A model generated the notes under the pieces. It saw only the letters and a list, made by a program, of their open reading frames with translations, ran no database searches and was not told the DNA's origin. From Candidatus Kaiserbacteria bacterium (lineage in GTDB: Bacteria > Patescibacteriota > Minisyncoccia > Phycocordibacterales > UBA2100): a stretch of 51,497 nucleotides of DNA. This document shows positions 3,422 to 51,412 of the stretch, piece by piece. Position 1 is the first letter of the stretch; every line of letters starts with the position of its first letter. The DNA lies in assembly GCA_016214605.1 (NCBI GenBank), contig JACROD010000014.1:107074-158570 (forward strand), given 5' to 3'. A program made the position numbers and the translations under genes.

Positions 3422-3775
3422 ATGCTCAGTACACTTGTTTTGTATATGCCGCCCCCCGGCAGTCCTGTAGCAGGGACCTTGTCGATCCTGATCGCGATCA
3501 CGATCGCGTTTTGGGGACCTATTCTCCTGCTTGTTCGGCGGGTCAGACATCGGCCGATCCTGATCGAGGAGGACTGGAGAAATCTTTTCCTCAAAAGACA
3601 GGAAGAATCGGGCGGGGCGATCACGTTGGATCATGTCCTGTTGGAGCGGGCACGAGGTCATCCGGATGTGATCCGGGCCATGAAAGCGCGGGATCGCGGC
3701 GGCCAAGTCTGGTTTCGCGACCGAAAGGGAAGGGTGGCCAGATTGCCTCTCGACGATCTTCGAAAGGCTGCTTGA
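3422..3775 (+). CDS. Hypothetical membrane-anchored protein (117 aa)
   Basis: aggagga SD upstream, N-terminal TM segment, shared terminator downstream. Confidence 0.5.
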   Translation: MLSTLVLYMPPPGSPVAGTLSILIAITIAFWGPILLLVRRVRHRPILIEEDWRNLFLKRQEESGGAITLDHVLLERARGHPDVIRAMKARDRGGQVWFRDRKGRVARLPLDDLRKAA

Positions 3776-4160: not shown

Positions 4161-5708
4161 TCAGTTGGCGGAGTACGCATCTTTCACAAACTGTACGAGC
4201 TTCGCTACATCGCGCTGCACGTCTTGCGAGCCGAGTACGATCACGACGATCTGACGTTCATGGCCGTCGACCGGTATTGAGAAGATCCCCGCGTATGTCT
4301 CGCCCGCCTCGTTGGTCTGACCTACTTTGCCGCCGACGAAGGTCTCAGGCGCTTTTTTGATGATATTGAAGTTGCTGAGCCCGGTAAAGGTCGGCGTACC
4401 GTATGCACTGTCGGCAAGGTCGCCTTTGGTGATGTCCAAGATAAAGCTTCGGTTTGCGTAGATATAACGCAGAAGCTTATAGAGGTCTTCCGGCGTCGAC
4501 ATGTCTTCCTTGGCGCCGGAAGGGTCGCTGAAGGTGGATTGTGTGAGGCCGATCGATTGCGCCTTGCGATCCATGGCCGCGATAAACGCGTTGCGTCCGC
4601 GTTCGGCGGCGAGCGTCTCGGCCGCTTCGTTGGAGGATTCTTGAAGCAAGAGGAAGAGGAGATCGTATGCCCGAATGTGTTCTCCGGGGTGCAGGCGTGG
4701 CACGGTCGTATACACGATCGCATCGCGCGGCACGGTGAGCTTCTTATCCAGATCGATGTACTCCGTCGCCACGAGCGCCGTTATGAGCTTGGTGATCGAG
4801 GCGATCGGTGCGGTGGTCGACGCATGGGAGCTTGCGAGCACGGTGCCGTTGTTCAGGTCGGCGAGGAGATATCCTTTTGCGGAGATCCGGGCAGGTTTTT
4901 TCTCCGGATAACTGAAACTGTCTTCTTGATAAGAGGTATTGAACACTACGACCGGCATGCCTACCTGCGCGAGCTTGTATACCTTTTCCGCGTCTTCCGT
5001 GGAAAGCCGGATACAGCCGCCCGAGTATGAGGTGGCGACTGGTGTACCGTCGTCGTAGTAGGGCCAACCGTGAATGAAGAAGTTGCCTTGGAATGCCAAG
5101 CTCCACGGCTGGTGGACGTGTCCGATGGACGAAAAGTGGTCTTCCTCGCGCCATTCGACTCGGTAGATACCGACGGGCGTTTCCCACCAGGAGCCGATCT
5201 TGCCTTTGGCGAGGATAGGCACGGTGAGCGCGAGCTGTCCGTCGGTATAGACGCTCATTTCCATCGCAGAGAGGTCCGCGCTGATGAACGATATTTTTTC
5301 GTCGATAAGGCGCAACTTGACGGACGTATAATAATGGGGATCAGAAAGCGCGGGCAGTGCGCCGTACGAGAGCGCGGGAGAGGTCGAAGCCATGCCTGCT
5401 TCCGGGATCGAAATGGAATACACGACAGGCGGTCGCATGTAGAGAAAGGTGAAGGATGCGAAGAAAGACAGCAGAAAAAGCCCGCCCATTACGGTGATGG
5501 GGGATGGTTTTTTACGCGGTGAACGTTTCGGGTCGGCGTGTTGCGGTGGCACGGGGGGAGAGGGGATCTTCATACCGCGCGACGCGAATATCGGATCAAT
5601 CGTCTCGCGATCCCATCCTTCGAGCAGGAGGACTTGATAGGCCTCAGTGTCCGGCACACCGCTTGCATGCAAGCGGTGGATAAAAGGATGTGGATCATTG
5701 CGCCTCAT
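4161..5708 (-). CDS. Membrane-anchored fusion protein: L,D-transpeptidase (YkuD) domain plus D-alanyl-D-alanine carboxypeptidase (peptidase S11) domain
   Basis: YkuD catalytic motif HGWP...SGGCIRL. S11 motifs SITK (SxxK), SSNEAA (SxN) and KVGQT (KTG-like). One TM segment after the N-terminal cytoplasmic part. Confidence 0.8.
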   Translation of the reverse strand: MRRNDPHPFIHRLHASGVPDTEAYQVLLLEGWDRETIDPIFASRGMKIPSPPVPPQHADPKRSPRKKPSPITVMGGLFLLSFFASFTFLYMRPPVVYSISIPEAGMASTSPALSYGALPALSDPHYYTSVKLRLIDEKISFISADLSAMEMSVYTDGQLALTVPILAKGKIGSWWETPVGIYRVEWREEDHFSSIGHVHQPWSLAFQGNFFIHGWPYYDDGTPVATSYSGGCIRLSTEDAEKVYKLAQVGMPVVVFNTSYQEDSFSYPEKKPARISAKGYLLADLNNGTVLASSHASTTAPIASITKLITALVATEYIDLDKKLTVPRDAIVYTTVPRLHPGEHIRAYDLLFLLLQESSNEAAETLAAERGRNAFIAAMDRKAQSIGLTQSTFSDPSGAKEDMSTPEDLYKLLRYIYANRSFILDITKGDLADSAYGTPTFTGLSNFNIIKKAPETFVGGKVGQTNEAGETYAGIFSIPVDGHERQIVVIVLGSQDVQRDVAKLVQFVKDAYSAN

Positions 5709-5791: not shown

Positions 5792-8725
5792 ATGGACGAT
5801 AAAAAAAGGGAGGTCAGCGAGGTCGCCAAACGCGAGGAGGATATTCTCGCGTTTTGGAATAAGAATGAGATCTTCCGGAAGACCGTCGATCGAGAGCCTG
5901 CCAAAGGCGACTTCGTCTTTTATGACGGTCCTCCGTTTGCGACCGGACTCCCACACTACGGGCATCTCTTGCAGAGCTTCGTCAAAGATGCGATTCCTCG
6001 CTACAAGACCATGCAGGGTTACCGCGTGGAGCGCCGGTGGGGATGGGATTGTCACGGCCTCCCGATTGAGAATATCGTCGAGAAAGAGCTCGGCACCAAA
6101 TCCAAGAAAGACATCGTGCAGATGGGGGTGAAGAAGTTCAATGACCTTTGTCGCGAGCGTATCTTCACCTTTATTGGCGAGTGGGAGCGGATCATCCCGC
6201 GCATCGGACGATTTGTCGACATGAAGCATGCATATCGTACAATGGACTTTTCCTACATGGAGAGCGAGTGGTGGGCCTTCAAGACGCTCTACGAGAAGGG
6301 TCTCATTTACGAGGACTATCGTTCCATGCACATCTGTCCGCGCTGCGAGACGACACTCTCCCAAGGCGAGGTTGCGGAAGGATACAAAGATGTCAAAGAC
6401 ATTTCAGTGACGGTCAAGTTCGAGCTCGTGAATGAGCCGGGCACGTATTTGCTTGCATGGACGACGACTCCATGGACGCTTCCCGGCAATGTCGCGATCG
6501 CTGTCGGCGCAGATATCACGTATATCAAAATCGAAGACACATGGAATGAAGATATTGGCGACAGTTCATACATGAAGACCGGCGTATACATTCTTTCCAA
6601 GCAGTCATACGAGCACTACAAGCAAGAATTTAAAAACCCAAAGATCGTGGGAGAAATGAAGGGGTCGGACCTGGTCGGCACGACATACAAGCCGCCATTT
6701 AGCTATTATATCGACGATGAGCATCTCAAGAATCGCGAGAATGGCTGGAAGGTCTACGCTGCGGATTTTGTCACGGAGGGGAGCGGCACCGGCATCGCGC
6801 ATGAAGCGCCGACCTTTGGCGCCGATGACTGGGCGCTCTTAAAGAAGTACGATCTTCCGTTCGTCCAACATGTAGGGATGGACGGCCGTATGAAGCCCGA
6901 GGTCATTGATCTTGCCGGCATGGAAGTGAAGCCGCGATCCGACGACGACAAGACGCGTCTCGGTACCGATATTGTCGTTCTCAAATATCTGCAGGATCAC
7001 CACCTCTTTTTCTCCAAAGAGAACATCACCCATGCGTACCCGCACTGCTGGCGCTGTGATACGCCGCTTCTCAACTACGCGATGTCTTCCTGGTTTGTCG
7101 CCGTGGAAAAAATGAAACCGACGCTACTCGAGACGGCACAGAGTATCAACTGGTCACCAGAACACATCAAGGAGGGGAGGTTTGGCAAGTGGCTTGAGGG
7201 TGCGCGCGACTGGTCTATCAGTCGCCAGCGCTTCTGGGCCAACACAATCCCCGTATGGCGCTGCGAAGCTTGTAAGAAAGATCAGGTCTTCGGTAGCGCA
7301 GCAGAGCTTGCGCAGGTAAGTAACGTAACCGTGACCGACCTTCACAAAGATGTAGTGGACAAAGTGAAGGTGTCATGCGCGTGCGGCGGTACGGCTGCTC
7401 GCGTGCCCGATGTGCTTGATACGTGGTTTGATTCCGGTTCGGTGCCGTTTTCCTCCGAGCATTATCCGTTTGAGAATGAGCAGCGGTATGAAGCGCGCGA
7501 GACCGCCGACTTCATCGGCGAGGCGCAGGATCAGACGCGCGCGTGGTTTTACTACTTGCACGTGCTTTCGGGCGGCCTTTTTGGCAAGGCTGCGTTCAAG
7601 AACTGCATCGTGACGGGGCTCGTCATGGCACAAGACGGCAAGAAGATGTCCAAGAAGCTTCAGAATTATCCCGATCCGATGGAGATCGTGGACAAATATG
7701 GTGCCGACGCGCTGCGACTCTACATCCTCTCGGCACCGATCGTACAAGCGGAAAATCTCAACTTCTCCGAGCGCGGCGTCGACGAAGTGCAGAAGAAAAA
7801 CATCAATCGTTTGCACAACGTCCTTGCGTTTTACCAGCTCTATGCGGATGGCACACCGCGCGATTTCAAGAGCGAAAATATTCTGGATCGTTGGATCGTG
7901 GCGCGCCTCGCGGCGTTGATCGCCGAATCGACGGACGGATTCGAAGCGTATGAGCTGGATGTCGCGCTGCGGCCGTTCGCGCTCTTCATCGACGATCTGT
8001 CGGTATGGTACCTGCGGCGTTCGCGCGAACGCTTCAAGGAAGACGACGATGATAAAAAAGCGGCGCTTGCGACATTGCGGTATGTCCTCCATACTCTTGC
8101 GCGCGTGTTGGCGCCGACGATGCCTTTTTATGCGGAGTATCTTTTCCAGGCAGTGCGCGAAGAGGAGGACGAAGAAAGCGTGCACCTGAGCGCGTGGCCC
8201 GCGATCCCGCCGCTTTCGTTTGACCCGACCGAAGTGCTCGCGACGATGCTCTTCGCGAGAAGCTTCGTTACTATGGCTCTGATGCAGCGGTCTGAGGCCG
8301 GTATCAAGGTCCGGCAGCCGCTCGCCAAACTCACCATCAAGCATCGTGGTCCCGAGGTCCCCTTTTGGAAGGAGGTAGTGCCGATCATCGCCGATGAGGT
8401 CAATGTCAAAGAGGTCGTGTTGGATGCCGATGCCGGCCAAGATACTCCCGGCATTTCACTCGATACGCATCTTACGCTGGAGCTGATAGAGGAGGGCCTG
8501 ATGCGCGAAATGATGCGTTTTGTACAGGGACAGCGCAAAGATATGAAGCTGGTGCCGTCCGACAAGATCCGCCTGACCGTCCTTGAAAGCGAAGCAGTGC
8601 GCCGCCACGAAGCAGAGATCGGCAAGACCCTCAACGCATCCGAGATCGTCTATGCACTCGAGTGGCAGGGGGTGCCGCTCAAGCTTACTGAAGGCGATAT
8701 CGTCGTCGGGATCGAAAAGATCTGA
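5792..8725 (+). CDS. ileS: Isoleucine--tRNA ligase
   Basis: PPFATGLPHYGHLL (HIGH), GWDCHGLPIE, WTTTPWTLPGN, KMSKKLQNY (KMSKS). 977 aa. An extended -10 (tgctacatt) lies 7 nt before the ATG. Confidence 0.93.
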   Translation: MDDKKREVSEVAKREEDILAFWNKNEIFRKTVDREPAKGDFVFYDGPPFATGLPHYGHLLQSFVKDAIPRYKTMQGYRVERRWGWDCHGLPIENIVEKELGTKSKKDIVQMGVKKFNDLCRERIFTFIGEWERIIPRIGRFVDMKHAYRTMDFSYMESEWWAFKTLYEKGLIYEDYRSMHICPRCETTLSQGEVAEGYKDVKDISVTVKFELVNEPGTYLLAWTTTPWTLPGNVAIAVGADITYIKIEDTWNEDIGDSSYMKTGVYILSKQSYEHYKQEFKNPKIVGEMKGSDLVGTTYKPPFSYYIDDEHLKNRENGWKVYAADFVTEGSGTGIAHEAPTFGADDWALLKKYDLPFVQHVGMDGRMKPEVIDLAGMEVKPRSDDDKTRLGTDIVVLKYLQDHHLFFSKENITHAYPHCWRCDTPLLNYAMSSWFVAVEKMKPTLLETAQSINWSPEHIKEGRFGKWLEGARDWSISRQRFWANTIPVWRCEACKKDQVFGSAAELAQVSNVTVTDLHKDVVDKVKVSCACGGTAARVPDVLDTWFDSGSVPFSSEHYPFENEQRYEARETADFIGEAQDQTRAWFYYLHVLSGGLFGKAAFKNCIVTGLVMAQDGKKMSKKLQNYPDPMEIVDKYGADALRLYILSAPIVQAENLNFSERGVDEVQKKNINRLHNVLAFYQLYADGTPRDFKSENILDRWIVARLAALIAESTDGFEAYELDVALRPFALFIDDLSVWYLRRSRERFKEDDDDKKAALATLRYVLHTLARVLAPTMPFYAEYLFQAVREEEDEESVHLSAWPAIPPLSFDPTEVLATMLFARSFVTMALMQRSEAGIKVRQPLAKLTIKHRGPEVPFWKEVVPIIADEVNVKEVVLDADAGQDTPGISLDTHLTLELIEEGLMREMMRFVQGQRKDMKLVPSDKIRLTVLESEAVRRHEAEIGKTLNASEIVYALEWQGVPLKLTEGDIVVGIEKI

Positions 8726-8732
8726 TCAATCC

Positions 8733-9323
8733 ATGTACCAAAAATATCAGACGGAGGCGCTCGTGTTGCAGAGCCGCCCCATGGGGGAGGCAGACAGGAT
8801 GTATGTGCTCTATACGCGTGATTTCGGACTCATACGGGCGCGCGCCTCGGGCGCGCGCAAAGAGACTTCCAAGATGCGCTATGCGCTGCAGCACTATAGC
8901 CGTGCAACGGTCGGTCTTATACGTGGGGTGCGCGGATGGCGGCTTGCGGGTGCAATCGCGCTGGAGACATCGGCGCGCAAAGACACGGACTCCGTCCGTG
9001 TCTTTGCGCGCCTGAGCGACTTGGTCGCCAAACTCGTCATCGGCGAAGAAGAAAATCCTTACCTATATGAAGCTCTTTCACAGACATATGAAGCCCTTAT
9101 AGGGGGATGGGAAGGTCAGACCTTCCCGTCCCCGGCGGCCACGATCGAGATCGTAGCGGTGGCCCGCATTCTCTATGCGCTCGGATATATATCATCGGAA
9201 GCGCTCAAGACCGCACTCTTTACCCATACGGCGTATGCGCTCGAGCACCTGATTGAAGCCGAGTCGATCCGCGAGGATCTCTTACTATCTATCAATCGCG
9301 CACTGTCCGAAACACACCTCTAG
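8733..9323 (+). CDS. recO: DNA repair protein RecO
   Basis: MYQKYQTEALVLQSRPMGEADRMYVLYTRDFGLIRARASGARK... is a typical RecO OB-fold N-terminus. Start is trimmed to the first ATG after the ileS stop. Confidence 0.8.
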   Translation: MYQKYQTEALVLQSRPMGEADRMYVLYTRDFGLIRARASGARKETSKMRYALQHYSRATVGLIRGVRGWRLAGAIALETSARKDTDSVRVFARLSDLVAKLVIGEEENPYLYEALSQTYEALIGGWEGQTFPSPAATIEIVAVARILYALGYISSEALKTALFTHTAYALEHLIEAESIREDLLLSINRALSETHL

Positions 9324-9348
9324 ACATTCGCGTGGTATTATTTTCCGT

Positions 9349-11358
9349 ATGGATCCTTCCGAGACACCGGAGCCGATGGAGACCAATCATGAGAAAGGCA
9401 AGGTCGAGCGTCTACGGCGTGCGATGTATTCGCGCGTGCTCGCCGACAAGCTCAAGGACAAAGAGCGTCGTGGGCTCGAGGAACATCCCGAATTGGTCGG
9501 GGAAGACTGGATGCATCCTGATGAGGGAGTATCGGGGACCATCATCGCGCCACGCGGCCTCACCGTCATGCGCTCCATTTTGCAGTGGTTGCTTGTAGCA
9601 GCCGCAGTTTTCTTCGTCGGTTCGATACTTTTCTTCGCGTACTACTTTACGTTCGGTTCGGGCAGCTTGTCAGCATCGGCCAACAACATAGATCTGATCG
9701 TGTCCGGACCTCCACAAGTCGCCGGCGGCGAGCCGACCGAGATCCAAGTTTCCATCACTAATCGTAATCGCGTACCGCTCGAACTCTCACAGCTGGTCGT
9801 GACTTATCCCGACGGCACGCGCTCGGTCAACGATCTCCTCACTCCATTGCCGTCTATACGTCAGGATTTGCAGACCATTCAGCCGGGAGAGACCAAACAA
9901 GGAGTGCTCAATGCTATCTTCTCCGGACAGGCAGGCGAACATAAAGACGTGAAAGTCGAACTTGAATACAGACTGAGCGGATCAAACGCCATCTTCGTGG
10001 CTTCAAGGGATTATAGTCTTTTGTTTGGAACCTCACCCCTGACAATCGCCGTCGACGGCAATACGTCGGCGATTTCTGGCCAACCGGTATCCATGACCGT
10101 CTCCGTTTCGTCCAACTCGAACACAACTGTGCGAGATGTGATCTTGCACGCCGACTTTCCGTTCGGGTTTTCTTTTACCGACGCGTCTCCGCATGCGTCC
10201 GATGCAGGTGTGTGGAATTTGGGCGACATCGGTCCGGGCCAGAAGAAAGAGGTCGTGATCGACGGTACGCTTCTCGGTGAGATGGGGGATGACAAAGTGT
10301 TTGACTTTACCGCCGGTGGTCGCACGAATGCGTCGAGCACCTCTATCAGTACTCAATTCGCTGAAAACCCTTTCAGTATCAACGTCGCAGAGCCATTTCT
10401 CGGATTGTCCATGAGTGTCAACCGATCGACAGGTTCTAATGTTGTCTTGGCGCCGGGAGATCTCGTGCAGGTCATTTTGAACTATGTGAACAATCTTCCG
10501 ACACAGATCACCGACGCGGTCATCGTTGCGCGTCTCTCCGGAGTTGCGGTTGACGGTGCGACGGTTCAGTCATCCGACGGATTCTACCGATCGACGGACA
10601 ATATCATGCTTTGGGACAAGATCACGACCGAAGGAAGGTTGGGTGTAATATCGGCAGGTCAAAAAGGGAGTGTCACGTTCTCTTTCAAGGTTCCCGACGC
10701 AGCGACGATAAACAACATCTCAAGTCCATATATAGATATCAGCGTGAATGCGAAAGGGAATCGCATCTCGGAGGTTGGGGCGCCGCAAAATCTGCAGTCG
10801 GCAACGGTCGAACATATCGCGCTTGCGAGCGATCTTCAGCTTTCGGCTCAAGGTCTCTACTTCCAAAATCCGTTCGGTTCCACCGGATCCTTGCCTCCAC
10901 AGGCCGGCAAGGAGACCAACTATGCGATCGTTTTCACAATCAAAAATACGACCAACAAGATCATCGGAGCTAAGGTGACAGCCGTCATTCCTCCGTATGT
11001 GCGCTGGCTCGGGAGCCACGCCCCGGCGTCTGAGAATCTTACCTTCAACCAAAATTCGAGCACCTTCACATGGGATGTGGGGGACATCGAGCCGGGGGTC
11101 GGGATGGGTGATACGCCGCCGCGGCAACTTGCGGTCTCGATCGGATTCGACCCCTCGACGAGCCAGGTCGGCCAGCAGCCGGTTTTGATCCAAGGCATTA
11201 CACTTATCGGTACTGATGATTCGACCAAAGCGAAGATTACGCGTACGACTCGTCCTGACGTGACCACGGACCTTATCCATGTATCGAAGTCTTCAGGTGA
11301 TGTCGTAGTGGGCACCGATAAGGGGTTTAATCCTGATCAGGCGACGGTGGTGCGATAG
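9349..11358 (+). CDS. Hypothetical large extracytoplasmic protein with one N-terminal TM anchor (669 aa)
   Basis: TM segment ILQWLLVAAAVFFVGSILFFAYYF followed by repeated beta-rich segments. Start trimmed to ATG 9349 (MDPSETPEP...). Confidence 0.65.
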   Translation: MDPSETPEPMETNHEKGKVERLRRAMYSRVLADKLKDKERRGLEEHPELVGEDWMHPDEGVSGTIIAPRGLTVMRSILQWLLVAAAVFFVGSILFFAYYFTFGSGSLSASANNIDLIVSGPPQVAGGEPTEIQVSITNRNRVPLELSQLVVTYPDGTRSVNDLLTPLPSIRQDLQTIQPGETKQGVLNAIFSGQAGEHKDVKVELEYRLSGSNAIFVASRDYSLLFGTSPLTIAVDGNTSAISGQPVSMTVSVSSNSNTTVRDVILHADFPFGFSFTDASPHASDAGVWNLGDIGPGQKKEVVIDGTLLGEMGDDKVFDFTAGGRTNASSTSISTQFAENPFSINVAEPFLGLSMSVNRSTGSNVVLAPGDLVQVILNYVNNLPTQITDAVIVARLSGVAVDGATVQSSDGFYRSTDNIMLWDKITTEGRLGVISAGQKGSVTFSFKVPDAATINNISSPYIDISVNAKGNRISEVGAPQNLQSATVEHIALASDLQLSAQGLYFQNPFGSTGSLPPQAGKETNYAIVFTIKNTTNKIIGAKVTAVIPPYVRWLGSHAPASENLTFNQNSSTFTWDVGDIEPGVGMGDTPPRQLAVSIGFDPSTSQVGQQPVLIQGITLIGTDDSTKAKITRTTRPDVTTDLIHVSKSSGDVVVGTDKGFNPDQATVVR

Positions 11359-23504: not shown

Positions 23505-23891
23505 CTATTCAGAGATGAGTTTGCAATATGAGGCGATCAACTTCCGGAGCTCATTTTCTGAAATTTGCCCCATGTGACCCAATAGTCTCTTTGTGTCCAA
23601 GGGTCTGGCCTGATTGAGAATTGCACATGAGGTGTCTCCAAAGTGTGGCAAAGGGTAGTACCAGTTACTCGATTTGCCTTTTGTGGTAAGTGGAGCGGCA
23701 AGCGCGATCTCGTGTGAGAATTTCTTGATGATGAGGACGGGGCGAATATATCCTGTTGTGCCTCCGTCCTGTTCGACACCGATGTTCAGCCCGATCCTAC
23801 ACCAGTACACCTCTCCCGGTTTGATAGGGGCACGATTACCTTGGTCAGTTTTCTTTTTAATCTCATTCCATGCGTCAAAATCTTTTTCCAT
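23505..23891 (-). CDS. PemK/MazF-family toxin (no adjacent antitoxin gene)
   Basis: PIKPGEVYWCRIGLNIGVEQDG...RPVLII...LNQARPLDTKRL is a typical MazF/PemK SH3-like barrel signature. Confidence 0.75.
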   Translation of the reverse strand: MEKDFDAWNEIKKKTDQGNRAPIKPGEVYWCRIGLNIGVEQDGGTTGYIRPVLIIKKFSHEIALAAPLTTKGKSSNWYYPLPHFGDTSCAILNQARPLDTKRLLGHMGQISENELRKLIASYCKLISE

Positions 23892-23909: not shown

Positions 23910-24067
23910 TTATTCCTCCTCGCTCTCACCACCACCGCTCTTCGCCTTGCCGATGACACCACCACCGTCGTGGAGGGCTTTGCGGATGTTTTTCAATAGT
24001 TCGTTGAGTATAGGCTTGTTGGTATGCAGGTATGTGCGCGCCGCATCGTAGCCGCGGCCGAGCTTGG
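23910..24067 (-). pseudogene. recA: Detached duplicate of the recA 3' end (last ~52 codons, no 5' part)
   Basis: 23940-24067 equals 25054-25181 except for one synonymous position. The tail would read ...GKAKSGGGESEEE*. Confidence 0.9.
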
Positions 24068-24098: not shown

Positions 24099-24995
24099 TT
24101 ACAATTCTTCGCGACTATCCCCAGTGTCATCATCACTATATACGTCTCGTCGAATATTGAATATCGTTTTAGGATCAAGAAGCGGTAGTGCTTGGGGTGC
24201 ACCCAGCAGTTTGCGGATGCGGATCGTAGAGAACTCGGGCTCATCGGGAATAACGGCATTATCAAACCCGTTGGCGCTGTACTGTACTTCGAGTACATCA
24301 TGATACTTTTCTCGGAGCATTTGTCCCCACACGTCAAGGACATGGTTGAGATCTACGGGTATTTGGATAAGCATCAAGCCTCCTTCCCGCAGTAATCCAT
24401 ACCATTCTTGAACAACGTTCGCGAGCATGTATGGTTCCTCAGGAAATAGGTCGAGACCACCTGCCATTCTTTCGACAATCAAATCTGCTTGTTCGGCTGA
24501 GAGCCATTCTTTTACCTGTGCGACGGTATCACGTGATGTTACATCGCCCTCAAGTATCGAATGATGCATCTGCGCGTCGTTGCTACCGTTTATGTTTGTT
24601 GCAGAGCGACGAAAGTCTGTAAGAGTAATACCTATAGATTTTTTGAAAAAACCAGGTGTAAATTCTCGGAAGAATCGGGTGCCGACCCCGCCTAATTCGA
24701 TGCCTATTGCTTTTCCCTGATGCGCGGCGAGTGTTGTTTCTATGTATGTCTTCAGGGAAGTTTCTTTATCGGGCAAAATACTACGAAAGGTATCGAGAAA
24801 GGAGCCACGCAGATTCAGATTTCCATCTTTATCCACACCAGACTCATCAATTCCAGAGTCGACCCAATTGTAATATTCACCAGCGGTACCTTCTCGATTG
24901 TTTGTCTGCTGTATTGCCGTAAAGATTTTCTCCGTTATTTGACGCAAACCTCGTCGTTCTGTGCCCATCGGAAAATGTTTTTTATGTTCAAACAT
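24099..24995 (-). CDS. Putative class I SAM-dependent methyltransferase (298 aa)
   Basis: Motif I-like AIGIELGGVGTRF and a later EGGLMLIQIP. No closer family recognised. Confidence 0.55.
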   Translation of the reverse strand: MFEHKKHFPMGTERRGLRQITEKIFTAIQQTNNREGTAGEYYNWVDSGIDESGVDKDGNLNLRGSFLDTFRSILPDKETSLKTYIETTLAAHQGKAIGIELGGVGTRFFREFTPGFFKKSIGITLTDFRRSATNINGSNDAQMHHSILEGDVTSRDTVAQVKEWLSAEQADLIVERMAGGLDLFPEEPYMLANVVQEWYGLLREGGLMLIQIPVDLNHVLDVWGQMLREKYHDVLEVQYSANGFDNAVIPDEPEFSTIRIRKLLGAPQALPLLDPKTIFNIRRDVYSDDDTGDSREEL

Positions 24996-25026: not shown

Positions 25027-26106
25027 TTATTCCTCGCTCTCACTGCCGCCAGCCTTCGCCTTGCCGATGACACCACCACCGTCATGGAGGGCTTTGCGGA
25101 TGTTTTTCAATAGTTCGTTGAGTATAGGCTTGTTGGTATGCAGGTATGTGCGCGCCGCATCGTAGCCGCGGCCGAGCTTGGTCTCGCCTATCGAGTAGGC
25201 ACCGCCGGAGGACTTTTGCACGAATCCAAGCCGCTCGCCGAGCGCGAGTGCTTCGCCCTCACGCGAGATGCCTTCGCCGTACATCATGTCGAATTCGGTC
25301 TGGCGGAATGGTGCGGCGACTTTGTTCTTGACGATCTTCACACGGTGGCGGCCACCCATGACCTCGTCGCCCTTCTTGATCTGGGCGATGCGGCGGATAT
25401 CGATGCGCACTGATGTGTAGAATTTGAGCGCCTTGCCTCCTGGGGTGGTTTCCGGATTCCCAAACATGACGCCAATCTGCATGCGGATCTGGTTGATGAA
25501 TATGACCACGGTCTTGGTCTTGGCGCAGATGGCGGTGAGCTTGCGCAGGGCCTGGCTCATCAGGCGTGCTTGTTTGCCCACATGCGACTGGCCCATGTCG
25601 CCTTCGATTTCATCCTTGGGAGTGAGTGCGGCGACCGAGTCGACGACGATCACATCGATCTTGCCGGAGCGCACGAGGCTCTCGACGATCTCGAGCGCCT
25701 GCTCGCCGGTATCAGGCTGGGAGACAAGGAGACTGTTGATATCGACACCGATCTTCTTGGCGTATTCGGGGTCGAGCGCATGCTCCGCGTCGATAAAGGC
25801 ACAGATACCGCCTTTCTTCTGGGCTTCGGCGATGACGTGGAGGGAGAGGGTGGTCTTGCCGGATGATTCGGGGCCGAATATTTCGATGATGCGGCCGCGC
25901 GGGACGCCGCCGATACCGAGTGCCCAATCGATGCCAATCGAGCCCGAGGGGATCGCGTCCACGTCCACCTTGGGCGAGGCACCGAGCATCATGATCGACT
26001 CATCGCCGAATTTGGTCTTGATCTCCGCGAGAGCGCGCTCGATGTCTTTGTCTGTGCCGGTGCCTGTCTGCTTCGGCGGAGCCTTTACCTTTTTTGTCAT
26101 TGCCAT
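25027..26106 (-). CDS. recA: Recombinase RecA
   Basis: [13 protein letters not shown] Walker A, ...[22 protein letters not shown]... 359 aa. Confidence 0.97.
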
Positions 26107-43036: not shown

Positions 43037-44616
43037 GGTGAGGGGAGTGAAATAGAACTGAAACCGTGCGCCTACAAGGAGTCGGAGCGGGCATTTATGT
43101 CCGTCACGGCGTGCCTATTGAAGAATGAGCCAACGAGTTGATGCGTACGGCGCGGCTAAGCCCTTTCGGGTGGAGCCATAGCGAAAGCGAGTGTGAATAG
43201 CGCGTTTGTCGTACGTATCAGACCCGAAGCCAGGTGAGCTACCCATGAGCAGGATGAAGTTTGTAGAGATACAGATGGAGGTCCGAACCCATAGATTGTG
43301 CAACATCTCGGGATGACTTGTGGGTTGGAGTGAAAAGCTTATCGAACCTGGTAATAGCTGGTTCTCTCCGAAAGAGCTTTCGGGCTTGCGTCGTGCGTTC
43401 CCTCTGGGGGTAGAGCACTGGAAGGTGTCGATAGGTCGCAAGACCACGACTCCTATCAAACTCCGAATACCAGAGGCCAGAGCACGGCAGTTAGACTACG
43501 GGGGCGAAGCTCCGTTGGTCAAAAGGGAAACAGCCCTAGATCGCCAGTTAAGGTCCCAAAATATATGCTAAGTGAACTTAAGGAGGTGAGATTTCTTAGA
43601 CAGTGAGGAGGTTGGCTTAGAAGCAGCCATCCTTTAAAGAAAGCGTAACAGCTCACTCACTCAGAGATCTTGCGCCACAAATGATCGGGTCTAAGCATAT
43701 TACCGAAGCTGCGGATTCGTGTACTTCATTGAGGATACAACTTCGATTGTATTCTCAATGAAGTACACGAGTGGTAGGAGAGCGTTCTGCACTGCGATGA
43801 AGTCCAAGGGGTGACCCACGATGGAGCGTGTAGAAGTGAAAATGTTGGCACGAGTAACCGCAATGCGAGTGAGATTCTCGCACGCCGAAAGAACAAGGTT
43901 TCCTTCGCAATGGAGATCATCGAAGGGTTAGTCGGGCCTAAGCCGATGGCGAACGCCGGAGGCGATGGACACATGGTTAATATTCCATGACCCGGCACTG
44001 ATGCGATGGAGGGACGGAATGCTGTACTGTACGCCCATTATTGGATTTGAGGTTCATGCCGTGAGGACTAGCGATAGGAAAATCCGTCGCGATATGTCCG
44101 AGCGGAGTGGAAATGAGGAGGCCTCGGCCGAATCAGATGTACAGGAGCGCGTTTTCAAGAAAAACTTCTAAGCATAATCAGTGTTGGACCGTACCGCAAA
44201 CCGACACAGGTGTTCAGGGCGAGTAGCCCAAGGCGAACGAGTGAGAGGTCCCCAAGGAACTCGGCAAAAAAGCGACCGTAACTTCGGGATAAGGTCTGCT
44301 CCTCTTTGAGGAGCCGCAGCTAAAGTTTCCCAACCAACTGTTTACCAAAAACACAGCTCCCTGCAAACTCGTAAGAGGAAGTATAGGGGGTGATGCCTGA
44401 CCAATGCCGGAAGGTCAAGTATGGGGGGTGTGCGCATCACATTGCATGTGATATGAGTTCACAGAAAACAGTTTACAGTTTACAGAAAATGCGACATCGC
44501 ATCCTTCTGTTTACTGTACACTGTCAACTGTAAACTACATCGCGCGCAGCGTGATGTGCATGCTGATCTATATAAGCCCCGGTCAATGTCGGCGATAACT
44601 ATAATCGTCCTAAGGT

Positions 44617-45179
44617 TCTGCTTCTCTCGCAAGAGGGAAGTGGAAGGACTGGGACGATTACCAGTTAGTAAAATTGGTACACAATACAAAATACCTAAAG
44701 TTGCCTCGTCACGCAGTAATGCATGACTGGTCCTAGAAAATAATACATGGCTATATGCTGGGAAGTTTGCGAAAGCAAACGATCAGCAGGGAAGACTCGG
44801 TACCACTTTGTCCTCAACGAAAAGTGGAGATAAGCATCATGAAAGTGCAGATAGGTTCGTCCAGCTCTGTCGAAATGACGTCTGATGAAGCAGCGCATGC
44901 AATGAAGGAGCATTTCGCAGCGCATGGAGTAATCCTCGAATACGTACGCATCGACGAAGATGGAGAAGTCCAATTCAAGATGCCCACGGGTTTCAAGGTT
45001 GTTCTTCGGCCAGGATTCGGCGGAGAGCACGAAATTCTATTGTGCTAGATAGAAAGTTCTTTAGTTTCAATATCTCCGGACATTGAGGCTAAAGTGGTGC
45101 CGAGAACCCTCAGAGACTACACGCCGTGCTCCCACGAAAGTGGGATGAAGATATAGTCCAAGACTTTAAAGGAGGTCAG
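44617..45179 (+). mobile_element. Group I intron at the 23S L1931-equivalent site
   Basis: Exon sequence ...cgtcctaaggt | agcgaaattccttgtc... is contiguous in E. coli. The 5' exon ends in U and the intron ends in G. Core motif gaagatatagtcc is present. Helix 44796-44809/45091-45104 closes the ORF loop. Confidence 0.8.
44839..45048 (+). CDS. Intron-encoded small ORF (69 aa) without a recognisable homing-endonuclease motif
   Basis: ggag lies 8 nt upstream of the ATG. MKVQIGSSSSVEMTSDEAAHAMKEHFAAHGVILEYVRIDEDGEVQFKMPTGFKVVLRPGFGGEHEILLC. Sits in a peripheral loop of the intron. Confidence 0.35.
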   Translation: MKVQIGSSSSVEMTSDEAAHAMKEHFAAHGVILEYVRIDEDGEVQFKMPTGFKVVLRPGFGGEHEILLC

Positions 45180-45902
45180 AGCGAAATTCCTTGTCTGGTA
45201 AGTTCAGACGCGCACGAATGGTATAATGAGTTGGGAACTGTCTCGGGGACTTGCTCGGTGAAAATACAAGGGCGGTGAAGATGCCGCCTTCCTGCAGCTA
45301 GACGAAAAGACCCCAGAAGCTTTACTGCAGCTTGATATTGGGGATACGGGTGCGATGCGTAGCATAGATGGGAGACTTTGAAGCCATGGCTTTGGTTGTG
45401 GTGGAGTCGCCAGTGCAATACCATCCTTCGTTTCTGTATCTTCTAACTTCTAGGGAGAAACCCTAGAAAGACAGTATCTGGTGGGCAGTTTGGGTGGGGC
45501 GCTCTCCTCCTAAAAAGTAACGGAGGAGCCTAAAGGTCAGCTAGGCGCGAATGGAAACCGTGCCGATAGTGTAATGGCACAAGCTGGCTTAACTGCGAGG
45601 CGTACTTGCCGAGCAGGCGCGAAAGCGGAGCATAGTGAACCGACCATTCGCATTAGATGCGGTGGAAGATTATCGGACAAAAGTTACTCTGGGGATAACA
45701 GGCTGGTTTCGCCTAAGAGTCCAAATCGACGGCGAAGTTCGGCACCTCGATGTCGGCTCATCTTATCCTGGGGCTGGAGAAGGTCCCAAGGGTTTGGCTG
45801 TTCGCCAATTAAAAAGGTACGTGAGCTGGGTTCAAACCGTCGTGAGACAGGTTGGTCTTAATCTGCTGCAGGCGTTGATTCTTGAGGAGATTTGTTTCTA
45901 GT

Positions 45903-46690
45903 AAAGTATTGCTACTTCAGGGAGAGATCCCTGATGACAATGCGGCTTATAACGGTGAAGTCTAATTCGCTTCCGATCCGAGAGTTTTATGCACGCTGGT
46001 CCGTGGCATAGAGCTCGCTTGAGGACCGGGTAAGTGATATGATAATACCGTGGGAAGTCGATCTAATGTTGATACAGCTTACATCGCGGGATTTCTTGAT
46101 GGTGATGGCAGTGTGATGTTGCAAGTAAAGTTGCGAGCCGACACAAAACGCGGCGCGCGATTTATGGCAACCATCTGCTTCTATCAGGATACCCGCCATG
46201 AGAAACCTCTCTTGTGGATACACAAACAATTGAAAGTCGGTTATGTCTCGCGTAGAAACGACGGCATGACCGAGCTGAGGATCAATGGATTCGCTCAAGT
46301 GCGGGAAATTCTTTCCGAACTAAAGCCATTCATCCGATTCAAAGCCAAGCAAACGGACGCGCTTATCAAAGCGTGTGCCTTGCTTGAAAGTAAATCAATC
46401 AGTTTGTTGTCAAAACAAGAGCTTCGGAAATTGGTAGATCTCGTCTTCGTGATACGAAACGAGAATTATGCAAGCCGAAGTACAGTGACTAAAGAAGAGT
46501 TGGATACAAGATTAGGTTTGACCCCGTAACGACTGTACACTCAGTGTACGACTCATGTGTAGAGGAATCAGTTCTTGCAACTGACTGCTCATATGGGTAA
46601 GATGCCGCGATCCTAATCCGCACAATCAGTTTTTGTTGCGCGGAAAGGATCAAGATATAGTCTGCGCTCCATGAAAGTGGGGAATGTGCG
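45903..46690 (+). mobile_element. Group I intron inside the sarcin-ricin loop of 23S rRNA
   Basis: Exons read ...gtttctagt | acgagaggaccgaaat..., i.e. AGU|ACGAGAGGACC. The 5' exon ends in U and the intron ends in G (46690). Core motif aagatatagtc at 46652-46662. Confidence 0.8.
46050..46529 (+). CDS. LAGLIDADG homing endonuclease, single-motif (homodimer-type), intron-encoded
   Basis: YIAGFLDGDGSVML motif near the N-terminus. 159 aa. GTG start. Confidence 0.85.
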   Translation: MGSRSNVDTAYIAGFLDGDGSVMLQVKLRADTKRGARFMATICFYQDTRHEKPLLWIHKQLKVGYVSRRNDGMTELRINGFAQVREILSELKPFIRFKAKQTDALIKACALLESKSISLLSKQELRKLVDLVFVIRNENYASRSTVTKEELDTRLGLTP

Positions 46691-46769
46691 ACGAGAGGAC
46701 CGAAATGAACTGACCTCTGGTCTGGGGGCTGTCACGCCAGTGGCACCGCCCCGTAGCTATGTCGGGAAA

Positions 46770-46802
<33 letters not shown>

Positions 46803-47051
46803 AACTCCAAGATAAGGAATCGTTTGAGGGCCGTGGGAGATGATCACGTTGATAGGCACTAGGTGGAAGCACAGCGATGTGTTGAGCCGAGGTGTACTAA
46901 TCCCCCGACAGAACTCTCGAAAGGAATTGTGAGAGTCGCGTAACGCTAAAGTTTGAATTTAATTCTTGCCTCGCCGAAGTCCGCAAGGACATAGGCGGGT
47001 TGTATATCGTTGTTCAGGTCATAAGCAGCAGAGAGATCATTTGAGCTCTCT

Positions 47052-47160
47052 GTGTTGGTGCTTCGTCGGAGGGGGTACACCCGTTCTCATTCCGAACACG
47101 GCAGTTAAGCCCTCCAGAGCCGATGGTAGTCGCAAGGCAAGAGTAGGTAGGCGCCAACAC
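47052..47160 (+). rRNA. rrf: 5S ribosomal RNA
   Basis: Helix I gtgttggtgc/gcgccaacac, ...ccgttctcattccgaacacggcagttaagc..., ...ccgatggtagt... Flanked by the processing stem gagctctctg/cagagagctc. Confidence 0.93.
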
Positions 47161-48052: not shown

Positions 48053-49207
48053 ATGGTCTCGCGTCTTGCCAAAAGTACCGCCTCATCCGCTCGATGGTTC
48101 CTCCATATCGATTGGTTCCTTTTTGGTGCGGCGTTCGTCATTTCTATTCTCGGGCTGATGACCATGCGTTCGTTCTCAGTCGAGAATTCTTTTTTCGATA
48201 AACAGCTCATCTGGATCGCTTTGGCAGTCGGCCTGTTCTTTGTCGTGAGTTTTGGGGACTACGGCTTCTTGCGTCGCACGAGGATCATTGTAAGTCTCTA
48301 TATGGTGGTGCTCGCACTGCTCATGCTCATCTTTGCCTTTGGGGCGATCGTGAAGGGCTCTCAAAATCGTTTCGATCTCGGATTCTTTGCGGTACAACCG
48401 TCCGACCCCGCCAAGCTCATACTCGTCGCCCTGCTCGCCAAATATTTCGCGCGCCGTCATATCGAGATCGCTCATATCCGGCATATCCTCGTCTCGGGCG
48501 TGTATGCCTTTGCGGTATTCGCACTTGTTTTTCTTCAGCCGGATTTTGGGTCCGGCATCATCATTGCTTCCATATGGCTTGGCATGGTCTTGGTCGCCGG
48601 AATCTCCTGGCGGCATTTGGCAGTGCTCGGGATCACCGCCACGATCGTGCTCACGGGCCTTTGGCAATTCGCTCTACACCCGTATCAGAAACAGCGTGTG
48701 CTCACCTTCATACATCCGCTTGCCGATATTCGTGGGGCAGGGTACAACGCCTACCAATCGACGATCGCGGTCGGATCGGGCGAGGTCTTGGGCAAGGGAG
48801 TCGGCTACGGCACGCAGTCCAAGCTCCAATTCTTGCCCGAGTATCAGACCGACTTCATCTTTGCGGCATATGCCGAGGAGTGGGGTTTTGCGGGTGTGAT
48901 ACTGCTCCTCGGGCTTTTTTTCGTCTTGGTCGTGCGGATACTTCTTATCGCCGCGCATGGGCGGGACAATTTTGACACGCTTTTTGCCGCAGGTATCGCG
49001 ATCTACTTCGCAGCGCAGTTCATGGTGCATGTGGGTATGAATATCGGCCTCATGCCGATCACGGGGACGACCCTACCTTTCATGAGCTATGGCGGTTCGC
49101 ATCTGCTTACCGAATACTTGGCACTCGGCATGCTCATGAGTCTCCGCCGCCACGCCCGCCCCGCGCTCGGGGTGCGGGATAATACCGAGCTGGTGGGGGC
49201 GTTATAG
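48053..49207 (+). CDS. SEDS-family peptidoglycan polymerase (RodA/FtsW)
   Basis: About 10 TM segments. ...QSKLQFLPEYQTDFIFAAYAEEWGF... and ...LPFMSYGGSHLL... are SEDS signatures. Confidence 0.9.
   Translation: MVSRLAKSTASSARWFLHIDWFLFGAAFVISILGLMTMRSFSVENSFFDKQLIWIALAVGLFFVVSFGDYGFLRRTRIIVSLYMVVLALLMLIFAFGAIVKGSQNRFDLGFFAVQPSDPAKLILVALLAKYFARRHIEIAHIRHILVSGVYAFAVFALVFLQPDFGSGIIIASIWLGMVLVAGISWRHLAVLGITATIVLTGLWQFALHPYQKQRVLTFIHPLADIRGAGYNAYQSTIAVGSGEVLGKGVGYGTQSKLQFLPEYQTDFIFAAYAEEWGFAGVILLLGLFFVLVVRILLIAAHGRDNFDTLFAAGIAIYFAAQFMVHVGMNIGLMPITGTTLPFMSYGGSHLLTEYLALGMLMSLRRHARPALGVRDNTELVGAL
49172..49207 (+). repeat. Direct repeat copy 1: the last 11 codons plus stop of rodA/ftsW
   Basis: gtgcgggataataccgagctggtgggggcgttatag encodes VRDNTELVGAL*. 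Confidence 0.9.
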
Positions 49208-49247
49208 TGAAATATCGAATTATTCCTTCGTTGCTTTGGGCAGGGCC

Positions 49248-49277
49248 TTGACGAGTTTATGCAAAAGTATATACTTT
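49248..49277 (+). promoter_or_regulatory. Promoter plus palindromic operator of the dinJ-yafQ-like operon
   Basis: ttgacg (49248-49253), 16-nt spacer, tatact (49270-49275). Perfect palindrome aaagtat|atacttt (49264-49277). The ATG lies 7 nt after the -10 box. Confidence 0.5.
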
Positions 49278-49282
49278 GGTAT

Positions 49283-49558
49283 ATGAACACGAAGACAACC
49301 ATTCTTATCAAGACTGATAAAAAGATCAAAGTTGCCGCACAAAAGGCAGCAAAGGACATCGGCATACCCTTGAGCACGGTGTTGGGAATGTACTTGCGTA
49401 AATTCGCCCATGAGCGCCGCATCGAATTTGAAGCGTCCTTGGTACCGAATGCAAAAACAATCCAAGCAATTAAAAAATCGCAAAAGGAATATGAGCGCGG
49501 CGGATATACAGGGCCGTTCTCCAATCTCGAAGATCTCCACAAGGCCCTTAGTACATAA
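49283..49558 (+). CDS. RelB/DinJ-family antitoxin
   Basis: TTILIKTDKKIKVAAQKAAKDIGIPLSTVLGMYLRKFAHE is an RHH-type DinJ pattern. The ORF opens at 49259; the leaderless ATG 49283 is preferred. Confidence 0.7.
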   Translation: MNTKTTILIKTDKKIKVAAQKAAKDIGIPLSTVLGMYLRKFAHERRIEFEASLVPNAKTIQAIKKSQKEYERGGYTGPFSNLEDLHKALST

Positions 49559-49561
49559 GGT

Positions 49562-49825
49562 ATGCAATTCGTTTTCTCACGCCTTTACAAGAGGCAATTC
49601 AAGAAGCTACCCCTTGATTTGCAAGTGAAAGTGATGATACGGCTCGATCTTTTTATGCAAGACGAGACGCATCCACTGCTTGATAATCACCAACTCCGTT
49701 TTGAATGGCAAGGATATCGAAGTATGAATATTACCGGTGATTATCGTGTGATATTCAAGAAAGAATCAGATGATATGGTACGTCTGGAACAAGTCGGTAC
49801 GCATCATGAATTGTATGGATCGTAA
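49562..49825 (+). CDS. RelE/YafQ-family mRNA interferase toxin
   Basis: FKKLPLDLQ...PLLDNHQLRFEWQGYRSMNITGDYRVIFKKESDDMVRLEQVGTHHELYG. Confidence 0.8.
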   Translation: MQFVFSRLYKRQFKKLPLDLQVKVMIRLDLFMQDETHPLLDNHQLRFEWQGYRSMNITGDYRVIFKKESDDMVRLEQVGTHHELYGS

Positions 49826-49884
49826 GGTTGGTGTTTGCAAAACCTCATTCAACTGTATAGCCCCACGATTCGTTCGATCATTGG

Positions 49885-49920
49885 GTAAGGGATAATACCG
49901 AGCTCGTGGGGGCGCTGTAA
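49885..49920 (+). repeat. Direct repeat copy 2: a detached, synonymously diverged copy of the rodA/ftsW 3' end
   Basis: gtaagggataataccgagctcgtgggggcgctgtaa also encodes VRDNTELVGAL*. It differs from copy 1 only at synonymous positions and in the stop codon. Confidence 0.9.
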
Positions 49921-49946: not shown

Positions 49947-50210
49947 GTGATATTTATATTGCATATGTTTAATGACTCTGTGAATCAACGAGGAGTTACA
50001 AGTATTGTATTGATAGTCTGGTTACTCATTTTATTGTTCATAGGAGGAAGTGTATGGTGGTTGCAGAACAAGCAGTCGAATGTGACACCGACATCGTCTA
50101 CCTCTACTTCTAAATTGTCAGCGACACAGCAATACACAAACGCTGAGATTCAAACGACACACAACAACCCGCAAAGGATAATCAGTCAGAGGCGCAATCA
50201 CGACTTATAG
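49947..50210 (+). CDS. Hypothetical membrane-anchored protein fragment (87 aa); possibly the N-terminal part of a frameshifted gene
   Basis: TM segment VTSIVLIVWLLILLFIGGSVWW followed by a Ser/Thr linker. The reading frame of the next ORF is already open from 50147. Confidence 0.4.
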   Translation: MIFILHMFNDSVNQRGVTSIVLIVWLLILLFIGGSVWWLQNKQSNVTPTSSTSTSKLSATQQYTNAEIQTTHNNPQRIISQRRNHDL

Positions 50211-50239: not shown

Positions 50240-51412
50240 GTGGAATATAAAGAAGGAACCGATGGCAAGCAACCACTCTCTCCTGCTCTAGAGAAGATCA
50301 ACCAAGATATGGCGTCCATCCTTATTCCTAAAGAGCATGCTGACTCGTGGGATGTTACCTTGGGGGCGGTTGGTAAAAGATATGTCGTGGTAACTATAGC
50401 TAGACCTACTGGCGCAGGATCTTCAGATCAAATCCTTGATTCAGTCACTTTGAAATCAAACTATGTAGATGGACTATTCCAATTTGTGGTTGGTAAGACT
50501 GCCGTATATGTGAGTGGCACGGACATCTGCGCATATACACTTGATCAGCCATCATGTGTTGCGTTACCAGGAGCCAAACTTTCGGGGGATGAGGTGTATG
50601 GAGATGCTGGCGGACTTGCTGGTTACTTTGAGCCACAAGGTTTAACACATACAAATACGACACTCACCATTGATATTCTCAAGTGGGTGCCTGACCAAGA
50701 GACGGGTTATTCCAAGCTCCAGAAAGCACGGGATGTAATGTTGAAACTACCGGCATCAAAGCTAGAAGTTTCATTGTCTACGCTACCTGAGAAATGCCAA
50801 AATACAGGGGACAACGATCCGGTTTCCATCGATTCTAAAATCACTTCGCAAGACGGTTTAGTTGTTGGTTATAGTGGACAGAATACAATTTGCATTATTG
50901 ATACAGTAGCAGGTAATGTTGAATACTATCGACTCTCGGGTGCAGGAGCGATCTCTATTTCGCGTGATGGATCAAAGATTTTTTACAATTACCCAGCTTA
51001 CTTCAAGGATGATGCGAGCGGTCCTCCTGACCCTGAAGCGGGATTACATAAAATAGAAAGATCGACCGGCAAAGATACCTTCGTCACGAAGGGAATGTAT
51101 GTCTTATGGGATGGTATCGATGGAAACAAGCATGGGCCCATTTTGTTATCCGGTTTCAGTGATCGTCACTCCCCGCAGATTATTGACGTGCCTCATCGGT
51201 TGCTCGTTGACGTTGAAGGATTCTTCAGTAAGAACGAAGTGCAGATTGTTGTTCGGCGATTACCTCAAGGTACAGGTGCTTGGGATTATTTGGCCGAAAG
51301 TGATATTGAAAAATTACCTATACTCGCAAAAACGAATGTTGTCGAACCGGCGTTTTTTGATTCCCCATACCTCGATGCTTTGCATCGGTCCACTCGCAAG
51401 ATACTCTGTTGA
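50240..51412 (+). CDS. Hypothetical extracytoplasmic protein (390 aa); the start is uncertain
   Basis: Long ORF with a GTG start in the track. No ATG or SD at its beginning. No family recognised. Confidence 0.55.
   Translation: MEYKEGTDGKQPLSPALEKINQDMASILIPKEHADSWDVTLGAVGKRYVVVTIARPTGAGSSDQILDSVTLKSNYVDGLFQFVVGKTAVYVSGTDICAYTLDQPSCVALPGAKLSGDEVYGDAGGLAGYFEPQGLTHTNTTLTIDILKWVPDQETGYSKLQKARDVMLKLPASKLEVSLSTLPEKCQNTGDNDPVSIDSKITSQDGLVVGYSGQNTICIIDTVAGNVEYYRLSGAGAISISRDGSKIFYNYPAYFKDDASGPPDPEAGLHKIERSTGKDTFVTKGMYVLWDGIDGNKHGPILLSGFSDRHSPQIIDVPHRLLVDVEGFFSKNEVQIVVRRLPQGTGAWDYLAESDIEKLPILAKTNVVEPAFFDSPYLDALHRSTRKILC

Follow-up and report, generated by a model that had tools for sequence, protein, structure and literature searches.

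A predicted toxin–antitoxin cassette between two synonymously diverged rodA gene ends in Candidatus Kaiserbacteria: a probable haplotype junction, probably formed without a dedicated recombinase

At icd, prophage e14 and phage 21 insert at the 3' end of a housekeeping gene, supply a replacement tail and displace the old one, leaving two tails that differ mainly at synonymous sites (PMC13626634). In the C-terminal displacement described for rhs and contact-dependent growth inhibition (CDI) loci and for type VI secretion system (T6SS) loci, a module arrives with part of the conserved gene attached and pushes the resident 3' end downstream; duplicated fragments are of variable length, arrays are formed, and integrase-free models have been proposed (PMC2935791, PMC5361080). 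Homology-facilitated illegitimate recombination (HFIR) and insertion-duplication combine one homologous anchor with an illegitimate joint, or duplicate a homologous segment around the insert (PMC3240628). Here we describe a toxin–antitoxin (TA) cassette lying between two copies of the rodA 3' end in Candidatus (Ca.) Kaiserbacteria. The stretch of DNA analyzed, referred to as the window, is 51,497 nt long (assembly GCA_016214605.1, contig JACROD010000014.1, forward-strand positions 107,074–158,570). The contig is metagenomic, and the structure of the locus is as read from the assembly. Patescibacteria (Candidate Phyla Radiation, CPR) have tiny genomes, with few recognisable mobile-element enzymes and many accessory cassettes.

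The window departs from each of these precedents. Whereas the e14 prophage spans 15 kb, encodes an integrase of its own and uses a defined att site, the window carries a 0.64 kb TA cassette followed by a stub of a neighbouring gene, without an integrase, and rodA is not a recurrent insertion site. The tips displaced at rhs, CDI and T6SS loci are different toxin domains, and their cargo consists of immunity genes in polymorphic-toxin loci; in contrast, the window and the related brackets described below have the tails of housekeeping genes, the two rodA tails are synonymous alleles, and the brackets carry either a TA pair (type II or type IV) or some unrelated gene. One of the related brackets (L053) is an array, like those of the rhs model. 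The HFIR events were laboratory events with engineered donors, whereas the event at rodA would have been natural, between diverged lineages, with the end of an essential gene as anchor and with its product kept. What is new is the combination of a missing integrase, synonymous housekeeping-gene tails and a cargo that is often a TA pair; icd and polymorphic-toxin displacement are the precedents. The single locus would not surprise specialists in icd/e14 or rhs, and it is the recurrence of the pattern and its association with TA pairs that make up the interesting part.

We consider it probable that the locus is a recombinant junction of two post-rodA haplotypes from diverged Ca. Kaiserbacteria lineages, because a stub of a GT4 glycosyltransferase gene lies between the toxin gene and the second rodA tail. 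On the plus strand, the order is rodA tail 1, 39 nt, the TA operon, 18 nt, the GT4 stub and rodA tail 2. The rodA gene itself (SEDS family; 48053–49207, plus strand) is intact and encodes 384 residues, which match Pfam FTSW_RODA_SPOVE over the full length (E-value 6e-89) and are 90–94% identical to other Ca. Kaiserbacteria RodA proteins. By its RodA homologues, the source of the DNA belongs to Ca. Kaiserbacteria (Patescibacteria/CPR), in which the C-terminal motif RD.TE[LI]VGA[LV] is widely kept. Tail copy 1, the genic one (49170–49207), comprises the last 12 codons plus TAG; the displaced copy 2 (49883–49920, also plus strand) comprises the last 12 codons plus TAA and is not preceded by upstream rodA sequence.

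Both 49172–49207 (GTGCGGGATAATACCGAGCTGGTGGGGGCGTTATAG) and 49885–49920 (GTAAGGGATAATACCGAGCTCGTGGGGGCGCTGTAA) translate to VRDNTELVGAL followed by a stop, as the initial annotation of this DNA had stated, and 30 of the 36 nt are identical. The repeat extends 2 nt further at its 5' side, to 49170 and 49883, and over these 38 nt the copies are 84% identical, with divergence of the coding type. Five codons account for the six differing nucleotides (gtg/gta, cgg/agg, ctg/ctc, tta/ctg with two changes, and tag/taa), and the earlier statement that the changes are all silent was borne out, with 6/6 synonymous. They span both extremes of the repeat, from its third and fourth bases (49174/5) to its last (49207). 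When six substitutions were placed at random in the 36-nt tail, the peptide and stop survived in just 1.2e-4 to 6.6e-4 of the simulations. The longest identical run within the repeat is 16 nt (core GGGATAATACCGAGCT). Direct pairs that are at least 30/36 identical and at most 3 kb apart number four in the window, two of which belong to a duplication at recA. The variants found in copy 2 (AGG, CTC, CTN and TAA) are all present in natural rodA tails of relatives. Exact-protein look-ups found neither the RodA nor the toxin of the window on record.

Because their divergence is silent only, the two rodA tails are judged to be alleles of different lineages that were under purifying selection while diverging. 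Pooled over four coding tail pairs (rodA, recA, rarA and secF), there are 41 synonymous and 11 non-synonymous differences, with a ratio of non-synonymous to synonymous proportions (pN/pS) of 0.085. This pattern has a probability of 1e-16 under neutrality and of 5e-9 if one copy alone were constrained. When one copy of the rodA tail is modelled as constrained and the other as free, this pair by itself gives P of about 0.01–0.02 (hand arithmetic from site counts). The proposal in the initial annotation that the second copy evolved within a functional orthologue thus agrees with both the silent-only divergence and the pooled ratio. The synonymous differences between tails also gauge the distance to the partner lineage: pS is 0.55 for rodA and 0.14 for recA, and the value for rodA implies that the partner was roughly as far removed as the sequenced relatives are. 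A later exchange of either tail by homologous recombination does not explain the differences, which reach both ends of the repeat: the crossovers would have had to fall outside it, where there is no homology.

The 677 nt between the tails (49208–49884) had been described as a complete TA module. A promoter-like site, a putative operator and predicted antitoxin and toxin genes are indeed present, but the bracket also holds the 10-codon GT4 stub, which reads MIERIVGLYS plus a stop on the minus strand (49844–49881). It was located with a position-specific scoring matrix built from the GT4 C-termini of 45 relatives and scored on the 77,660 six-frame 9-mers of the window, among which the 9-mer of the stub ranks first (13.8 bits; runner-up 10.5). 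Its stop is one codon past the 9-mer, the same as in the GT4 family; the GT4 proteins of relatives end M[ILV]x[KQE]TxxLY, followed by 0–4 residues. By hand count, 21 of 33 nt are identical between the stub and the GT4 end of L001, a related locus. By these sequence measures, the minus-strand peptide is a stub of a GT4 3' end. The window does not contain an intact GT4 gene anywhere. A second GT4-like peptide, LNEVLQTPTLR, is not colinear with the stub and was taken as a chance match. The joint between the stub and tail copy 2 (49881–49884) appears to be illegitimate, with possible microhomology of at most 1–3 nt.

Two sets of rodA loci were compared with the window: seven loci (L001–L007) with RodA 82–94% identical to that of the window, and 80 species-representative loci of GTDB Paceibacteria. 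In six of the seven, the rodA stop is followed by a convergent GT4 stop 0–8 nt away, and in the closest relative found (L101, 83% nucleotide identity) GT4 converges on rodA in the same layout as in the loci of the L001–L006 type. Of the 80 representatives, roughly half to two thirds have GT4 no more than about 100 nt from rodA, and GT4 converges on rodA in most of 87 related loci. The initial annotation had expected relatives to have rodA followed directly by the sequence past 49920; relatives, L101 included, have rodA followed by GT4 instead. About 17 of the 80 loci contain unrelated inserts of 0.35–5.5 kb between rodA and GT4 (pilins, a restriction-modification system, large surface proteins and Lnt-like genes), none of them with a tail duplication or a TA pair. 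The convergent rodA/GT4 junction is a variable spot.

Further observations were made at this site. A DNA methylase/restriction pair, or pilin-like and small transmembrane genes, are found at L072 (10358–12533) and also at L054, L059, L068, L076 and L094. Downstream of rodA in L095, a 118-nt non-coding repeat (6620–6737 and 10017–10134, 90% identical) brackets an Lnt-like gene and GT4. The RodA of L007 (6100–6273) diverges past ...VRDNTEL into YLQV and a stop, followed by AT-rich DNA; the contig ends 148 nt past rodA, and a joint may have formed here within the rodA tail, with the tail left unrestored.

The anatomy of the window can be explained by two haplotypes. The first, H1, would be rodA, TA cassette and convergent GT4, that is, the ancestral rodA/GT4 layout with a TA operon inserted between the stops; the order tail 1, TA, GT4 stub indicates that the TA operon once lay between the rodA and GT4 stops. 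The second, H2, would be rodA followed by a low-GC membrane-protein gene. The window would then consist of H1 through the tenth-last GT4 codon, fused to H2 beginning 12–13 codons before the rodA stop, and the duplication of the tail as two alleles would be the result of this fusion. On one side, the incoming DNA would undergo homologous recombination within a conserved gene (in the simplest case rodA, upstream of codon −13); the other end would be joined illegitimately, making this a case of HFIR after uptake. An equivalent topology would be reached if a small unit of tail, TA and GT4 stub entered by a single or short-arm crossover within the 38-nt tail. Once formed, the paired tails could serve as short homology arms. 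The TA pair would have no role in integration and would favour keeping of the insert.

Such a route would be in line with what is known of these and other bacteria. Patescibacteria are reported to carry competence and homologous recombination genes (PMC12455944), and competence may have provided the entry; RecA, RecO and SSB are encoded in the window. HFIR is known in transformable bacteria (PMC3240628) and has been proposed for T6SS effector displacement (PMC5361080). In the rhs model, single crossover of a circular intermediate leads to duplicated core fragments of variable length and to arrays (PMC2935791), and duplications from circular-molecule single crossover in E. coli measured 109–950 bp (PMC3240628). 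No recognisable integrase or transposase is present among the scanned open reading frames (ORFs) of the window, viral collections gave no matches, and a 26-mer of the rodA tail was not found in the JGI metagenome and viral collections. It is unlikely that a dedicated recombinase took part, because none is found in the window, rodA is not reused, and each bracket would need a separate enzyme. The initial annotation had further proposed a precise integration at the gene end; RodA is indeed intact, but this outcome is not specific to the TA pair, as the same scar is found at other genes with other cargo.

Seven brackets of this kind were found, with duplicated fragments of 36, 68, 86, 100, 104, 139 and 151 nt, the host genes being rodA, recA, rarA, secF, a DUF6580 gene and 5S rRNA. 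The architecture is present in independent assemblies from JGI, ENA, Logan and NCBI. A second case is in the window itself, where the last 151 nt of recA (minus strand, 25031–25181) recur at 23917–24067 with 95% identity; the two copies differ by an in-frame extra Glu codon, among other changes, and bracket a 298-residue ORF (24099–24995) without a family match. Relatives of this ORF298 were not found in the metagenome or viral contigs searched. A PemK/MazF-like gene (23505–23891, minus strand, Pfam E-value 2e-9) starts 19 nt past the displaced recA tail; upstream of this gene, no ORF for an antitoxin can be seen. Screening with PADLOC defence models gave no match for the TA pair, ORF298 or the MazF-like gene.

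The TA family of the window is itself found in two further brackets. In L008, a 2-kb insert that includes it lies between copies of a 139-nt piece of the rarA/mgsA tail, and the tails differ synonymously in 15 codons and non-synonymously in 3; in L015, it is tightly bracketed by a 68-nt repeat, with a period of 673 nt. L008 also has a three-copy repeat family of about 50 nt (636–694, 2295–2349 and 5030–5078), one copy of which is just past the toxin stop. The serial array of L053 (7233–10119) consists of secF, hicBA, a displaced secF tail, a 225-residue ORF and a third secF tail, and the spacer after the stop is common to the third and first tails. At this locus, it is the junction with the second secF tail that creates the stop codon of hicA. 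In L097 (10832–11937; also in L098–L100), copies of a 100-nt segment from the 3' region of a convergent DUF6580 gene flank an AbiEii-type TA pair and show 8 synonymous and 2 non-synonymous differences. The genic copy there has gained a different C-terminal extension, which overlaps the end of abiEii.

The 5S rRNA case in L005 extends the pattern to a non-coding gene. A 2.1-kb insert with a gene for a 656-residue beta-helix/peptidoglycan-binding protein has on either side the final 35 nt of 5S rRNA together with the terminator (1417–1504 and 3541–3632). The two terminators have different yet self-complementary stems and one helix-I pair covaries; because the stems compensate, each copy must have evolved as a working unit. 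In the window, the site of this insert is empty. No description of the tail-bracket pattern in Patescibacteria was found in the literature searched. The recurrence of an integrase-free scar at six genes points to HFIR or single-crossover capture as a routine means of gene gain and suggests a way in which TA modules travel and are maintained. In annotation, displaced gene tails should be neither labelled pseudogenes nor discarded as assembly errors.

Several points weigh against a two-haplotype junction made in this way. Experimental HFIR usually gives an insertion plus a deletion, and the duplications observed came from circular molecules (PMC3240628). Neither parental haplotype was found in the public data searched, and no mosaic breakpoint was seen in rodA, where the ranking of five relatives by sliding-window identity is unchanged. 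The 16-nt longest identical stretch is poor for a RecA-mediated crossover in the tail. Codon usage weakly favours tail 2 as the native one (log-likelihood −8.3 versus −9.6). As the window ends at 51497, the absence of a GT4 gene and of a third tail holds for the window only.

A broader reading may be put forward tentatively, as a possibility that we would not favour. Patescibacterial TA cassettes and small genes would spread integrase-free, each with an allelic gene-3'-end fragment as a portable homology arm, and RecA would excise and re-insert them between paired tails. If this is true, ordinary transformation would drop such units behind the same gene in any lineage, regardless of the sequence downstream, with the TA pair enforcing retention, and the displaced tails would be datable fossils of the donor lineage of each transfer.

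The direction of the exchange could also have been the opposite, which we regard as rather unlikely. H1 would then be the resident, and a TA-less fragment starting in its own rodA tail would have brought the low-GC genes, with a homologous anchor to the right of the window and a left end joined illegitimately just past the TA pair. Loss of the TA pair by double crossover would kill the cell, so that products retaining it would survive, and scars of this kind would be failed attempts of transformation at curing the TA pair. In agreement with this, all close relatives have GT4 by rodA, which places H1 nearer to the ancestral state than H2; HFIR with insertion and deletion, which typically deletes recipient DNA, would explain the loss of the GT4 body (PMC3240628); and in three TA cases the joints are 0–57 nt past the toxin gene. 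However, the occurrence of the TA family in tight brackets of similar size at unrelated loci, such as L015, suggests that it is the TA unit that moves. Tail 1 contains TTA, which makes up 1.4% of the Leu codons in the core genes of this genome, the first downstream gene looks frameshifted, and the right-hand anchor would lie beyond the visible window. We lean towards H1 (tail 1 and the TA pair) as an immigrant into an H2 chromosome. Of the import from a related lineage suggested in the initial annotation, the involvement of DNA from such a lineage stands; the imported part may be the TA pair together with tail 1, or else tail 2 and the DNA downstream of it.

Site-specific integration, in which the tails would be attL and attR of a small or decayed element (similar to a cis-mobilizable element, CIME) with its tyrosine or serine recombinase encoded elsewhere, appears improbable. 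Like e14 and phage 21 at icd, the element would bring a new end for the gene, and the topology is the same as that of e14 at icd/icdC, synonymous differences included (PMC13626634); moreover, the 16-nt identical core could be an att core, and the rodA frame of L007 diverges exactly past its equivalent. An identical core and an intact RodA are, however, equally expected of homology-based routes. Neither the bracket nor the window encodes an integrase, and a search for the 12-residue tail allowing up to four mismatches found a second rodA tail in 0 of the 80 related genomes. Since the TA family is bracketed elsewhere by other sequences of other lengths, a different recombinase would be required each time, in genomes of about 1 Mb. 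The GT4 stub inside the bracket would also be unexpected for an att-defined element.

An assembly artefact, that is, a chimera of co-occurring strains made via the shared rodA tail, is very unlikely. The contig is metagenomic and the tails do resemble strain- or species-level alleles, but their shared identity of 16 nt is shorter than assembler k-mers, and such a join would leave a single hybrid tail, not a bracket. The sequence at both junctions (49207/8 and 49882/3) is unique, and the independent assemblies mentioned above share the architecture.

In-situ target-site duplication followed by non-coding drift, or a template/variable repeat pair of a diversity-generating retroelement (DGR), can practically be dismissed: direct repeats do flank the insert and DGRs are common in these bacteria, but drift of a non-coding tail copy after insertion predicts mostly changes of the non-synonymous type and is contradicted by the synonymous-only pattern at rodA, by the pooled pN/pS, by the in-frame codon indel of the recA tails and by the compensatory stem changes at 5S, repeats of 36–151 nt are unlike transposase duplications, the window encodes neither a transposase nor a reverse transcriptase, and the three of six differences that involve A in copy 2 are, like the rest, silent, with six other A positions unchanged. 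An integron was likewise rejected on the features tested, along with the DGR, transposon-duplication and integrase readings. A DGR-like variable/template pair is present in L005, where a repeat pair (8766–8908 and 9249–9391) lies by bAvd and a reverse transcriptase; this pair has no connection with the tail brackets.

The cassette itself is predicted from its sequence to be an ordinary type II addiction module of the RelBE/DinJ-YafQ type, which it resembles in its antitoxin–toxin order, the 3-nt gap between the genes, the sizes of 91 and 87 residues and a palindrome overlapping the promoter. All of its elements are on the plus strand. The 39-nt spacer from the rodA stop to the TA core (49208–49246) is not kept among homologous cassettes. 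It is followed by a sigma-70-like, promoter-like site, TTGACG-16-TATACT (49248–49275), which agrees with the consensus at 10 of 12 positions. An inverted repeat (49258–49283) overlaps the −10 box and ends at the antitoxin ATG; across cassettes, this palindrome is kept as a near-perfect 24-nt one with consensus ATACCAAAGTATATACTTTGGTAT, and it may function as an operator. When four homologous TA cassettes were aligned, conservation began exactly at the −35 box and ended a few bases past the toxin stop; because it is bounded in this way, the conserved unit is the bare TA operon. The ends of the cassette lack terminal repeats, terminal inverted repeats and att-like sequences.

The predicted RelB/DinJ-family antitoxin (49283–49558, 91 residues, with an alternative upstream ATG at 49259) matches Pfam RelB with 37.2 bits (cut-off 22.4); the 44 bits obtained for TIGR02384 are just under the cut-off of 45.65, and the DinJ structure 4Q2U is matched with an E-value of 0.009. 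After a 3-nt gap follows the predicted YafQ/RelE-family toxin (49562–49825, 87 residues), which scores 35.8 bits with Pfam YafQ_toxin (cut-off 30) and 33.7 bits with TIGR02385 RelE_StbE (cut-off 27.9), and matches the structure of E. coli YafQ (4ML0) with an E-value of 4.5e-6. The best solved relatives of the pair are E. coli DinJ-YafQ. An asparagine of the toxin aligns with the E. coli YafQ residue that we take to be the catalytic His63. The toxin family is small: 18 homologues were found, the three closest in three unrelated loci, and none was found in the viral collections searched.

From 49921 to the end of the window at 51497 (plus strand), the DNA is a lineage-specific segment of low GC content (about 44% versus about 53%). 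It contains a membrane-protein gene in two frames, with a transmembrane anchor at 49947–50210 and an ORF at 50240–51412. The conserved domain of the split protein starts at about 50160, and the frame split is seen by comparison with 249-residue homologues, such as P0140; the gene 3' of tail 2 thus looks frameshifted. Homologues of the downstream ORF390 are hypothetical proteins in unrelated contexts and are uninformative.

Upstream of rodA, positions 42406–47159 contain the 23S rRNA gene followed by the 5S rRNA gene (47054–47159), and an ORF for a LAGLIDADG endonuclease (46050–46529) is located in an insertion relative to L005 and L007. No tRNA genes were found in the whole 51.5 kb. Just upstream of the 5' end of the 23S gene, two similar GC-rich stem-loops (CCCCGC...GCGGGG; 42230–42265 and 42344–42379) may be processing stems.

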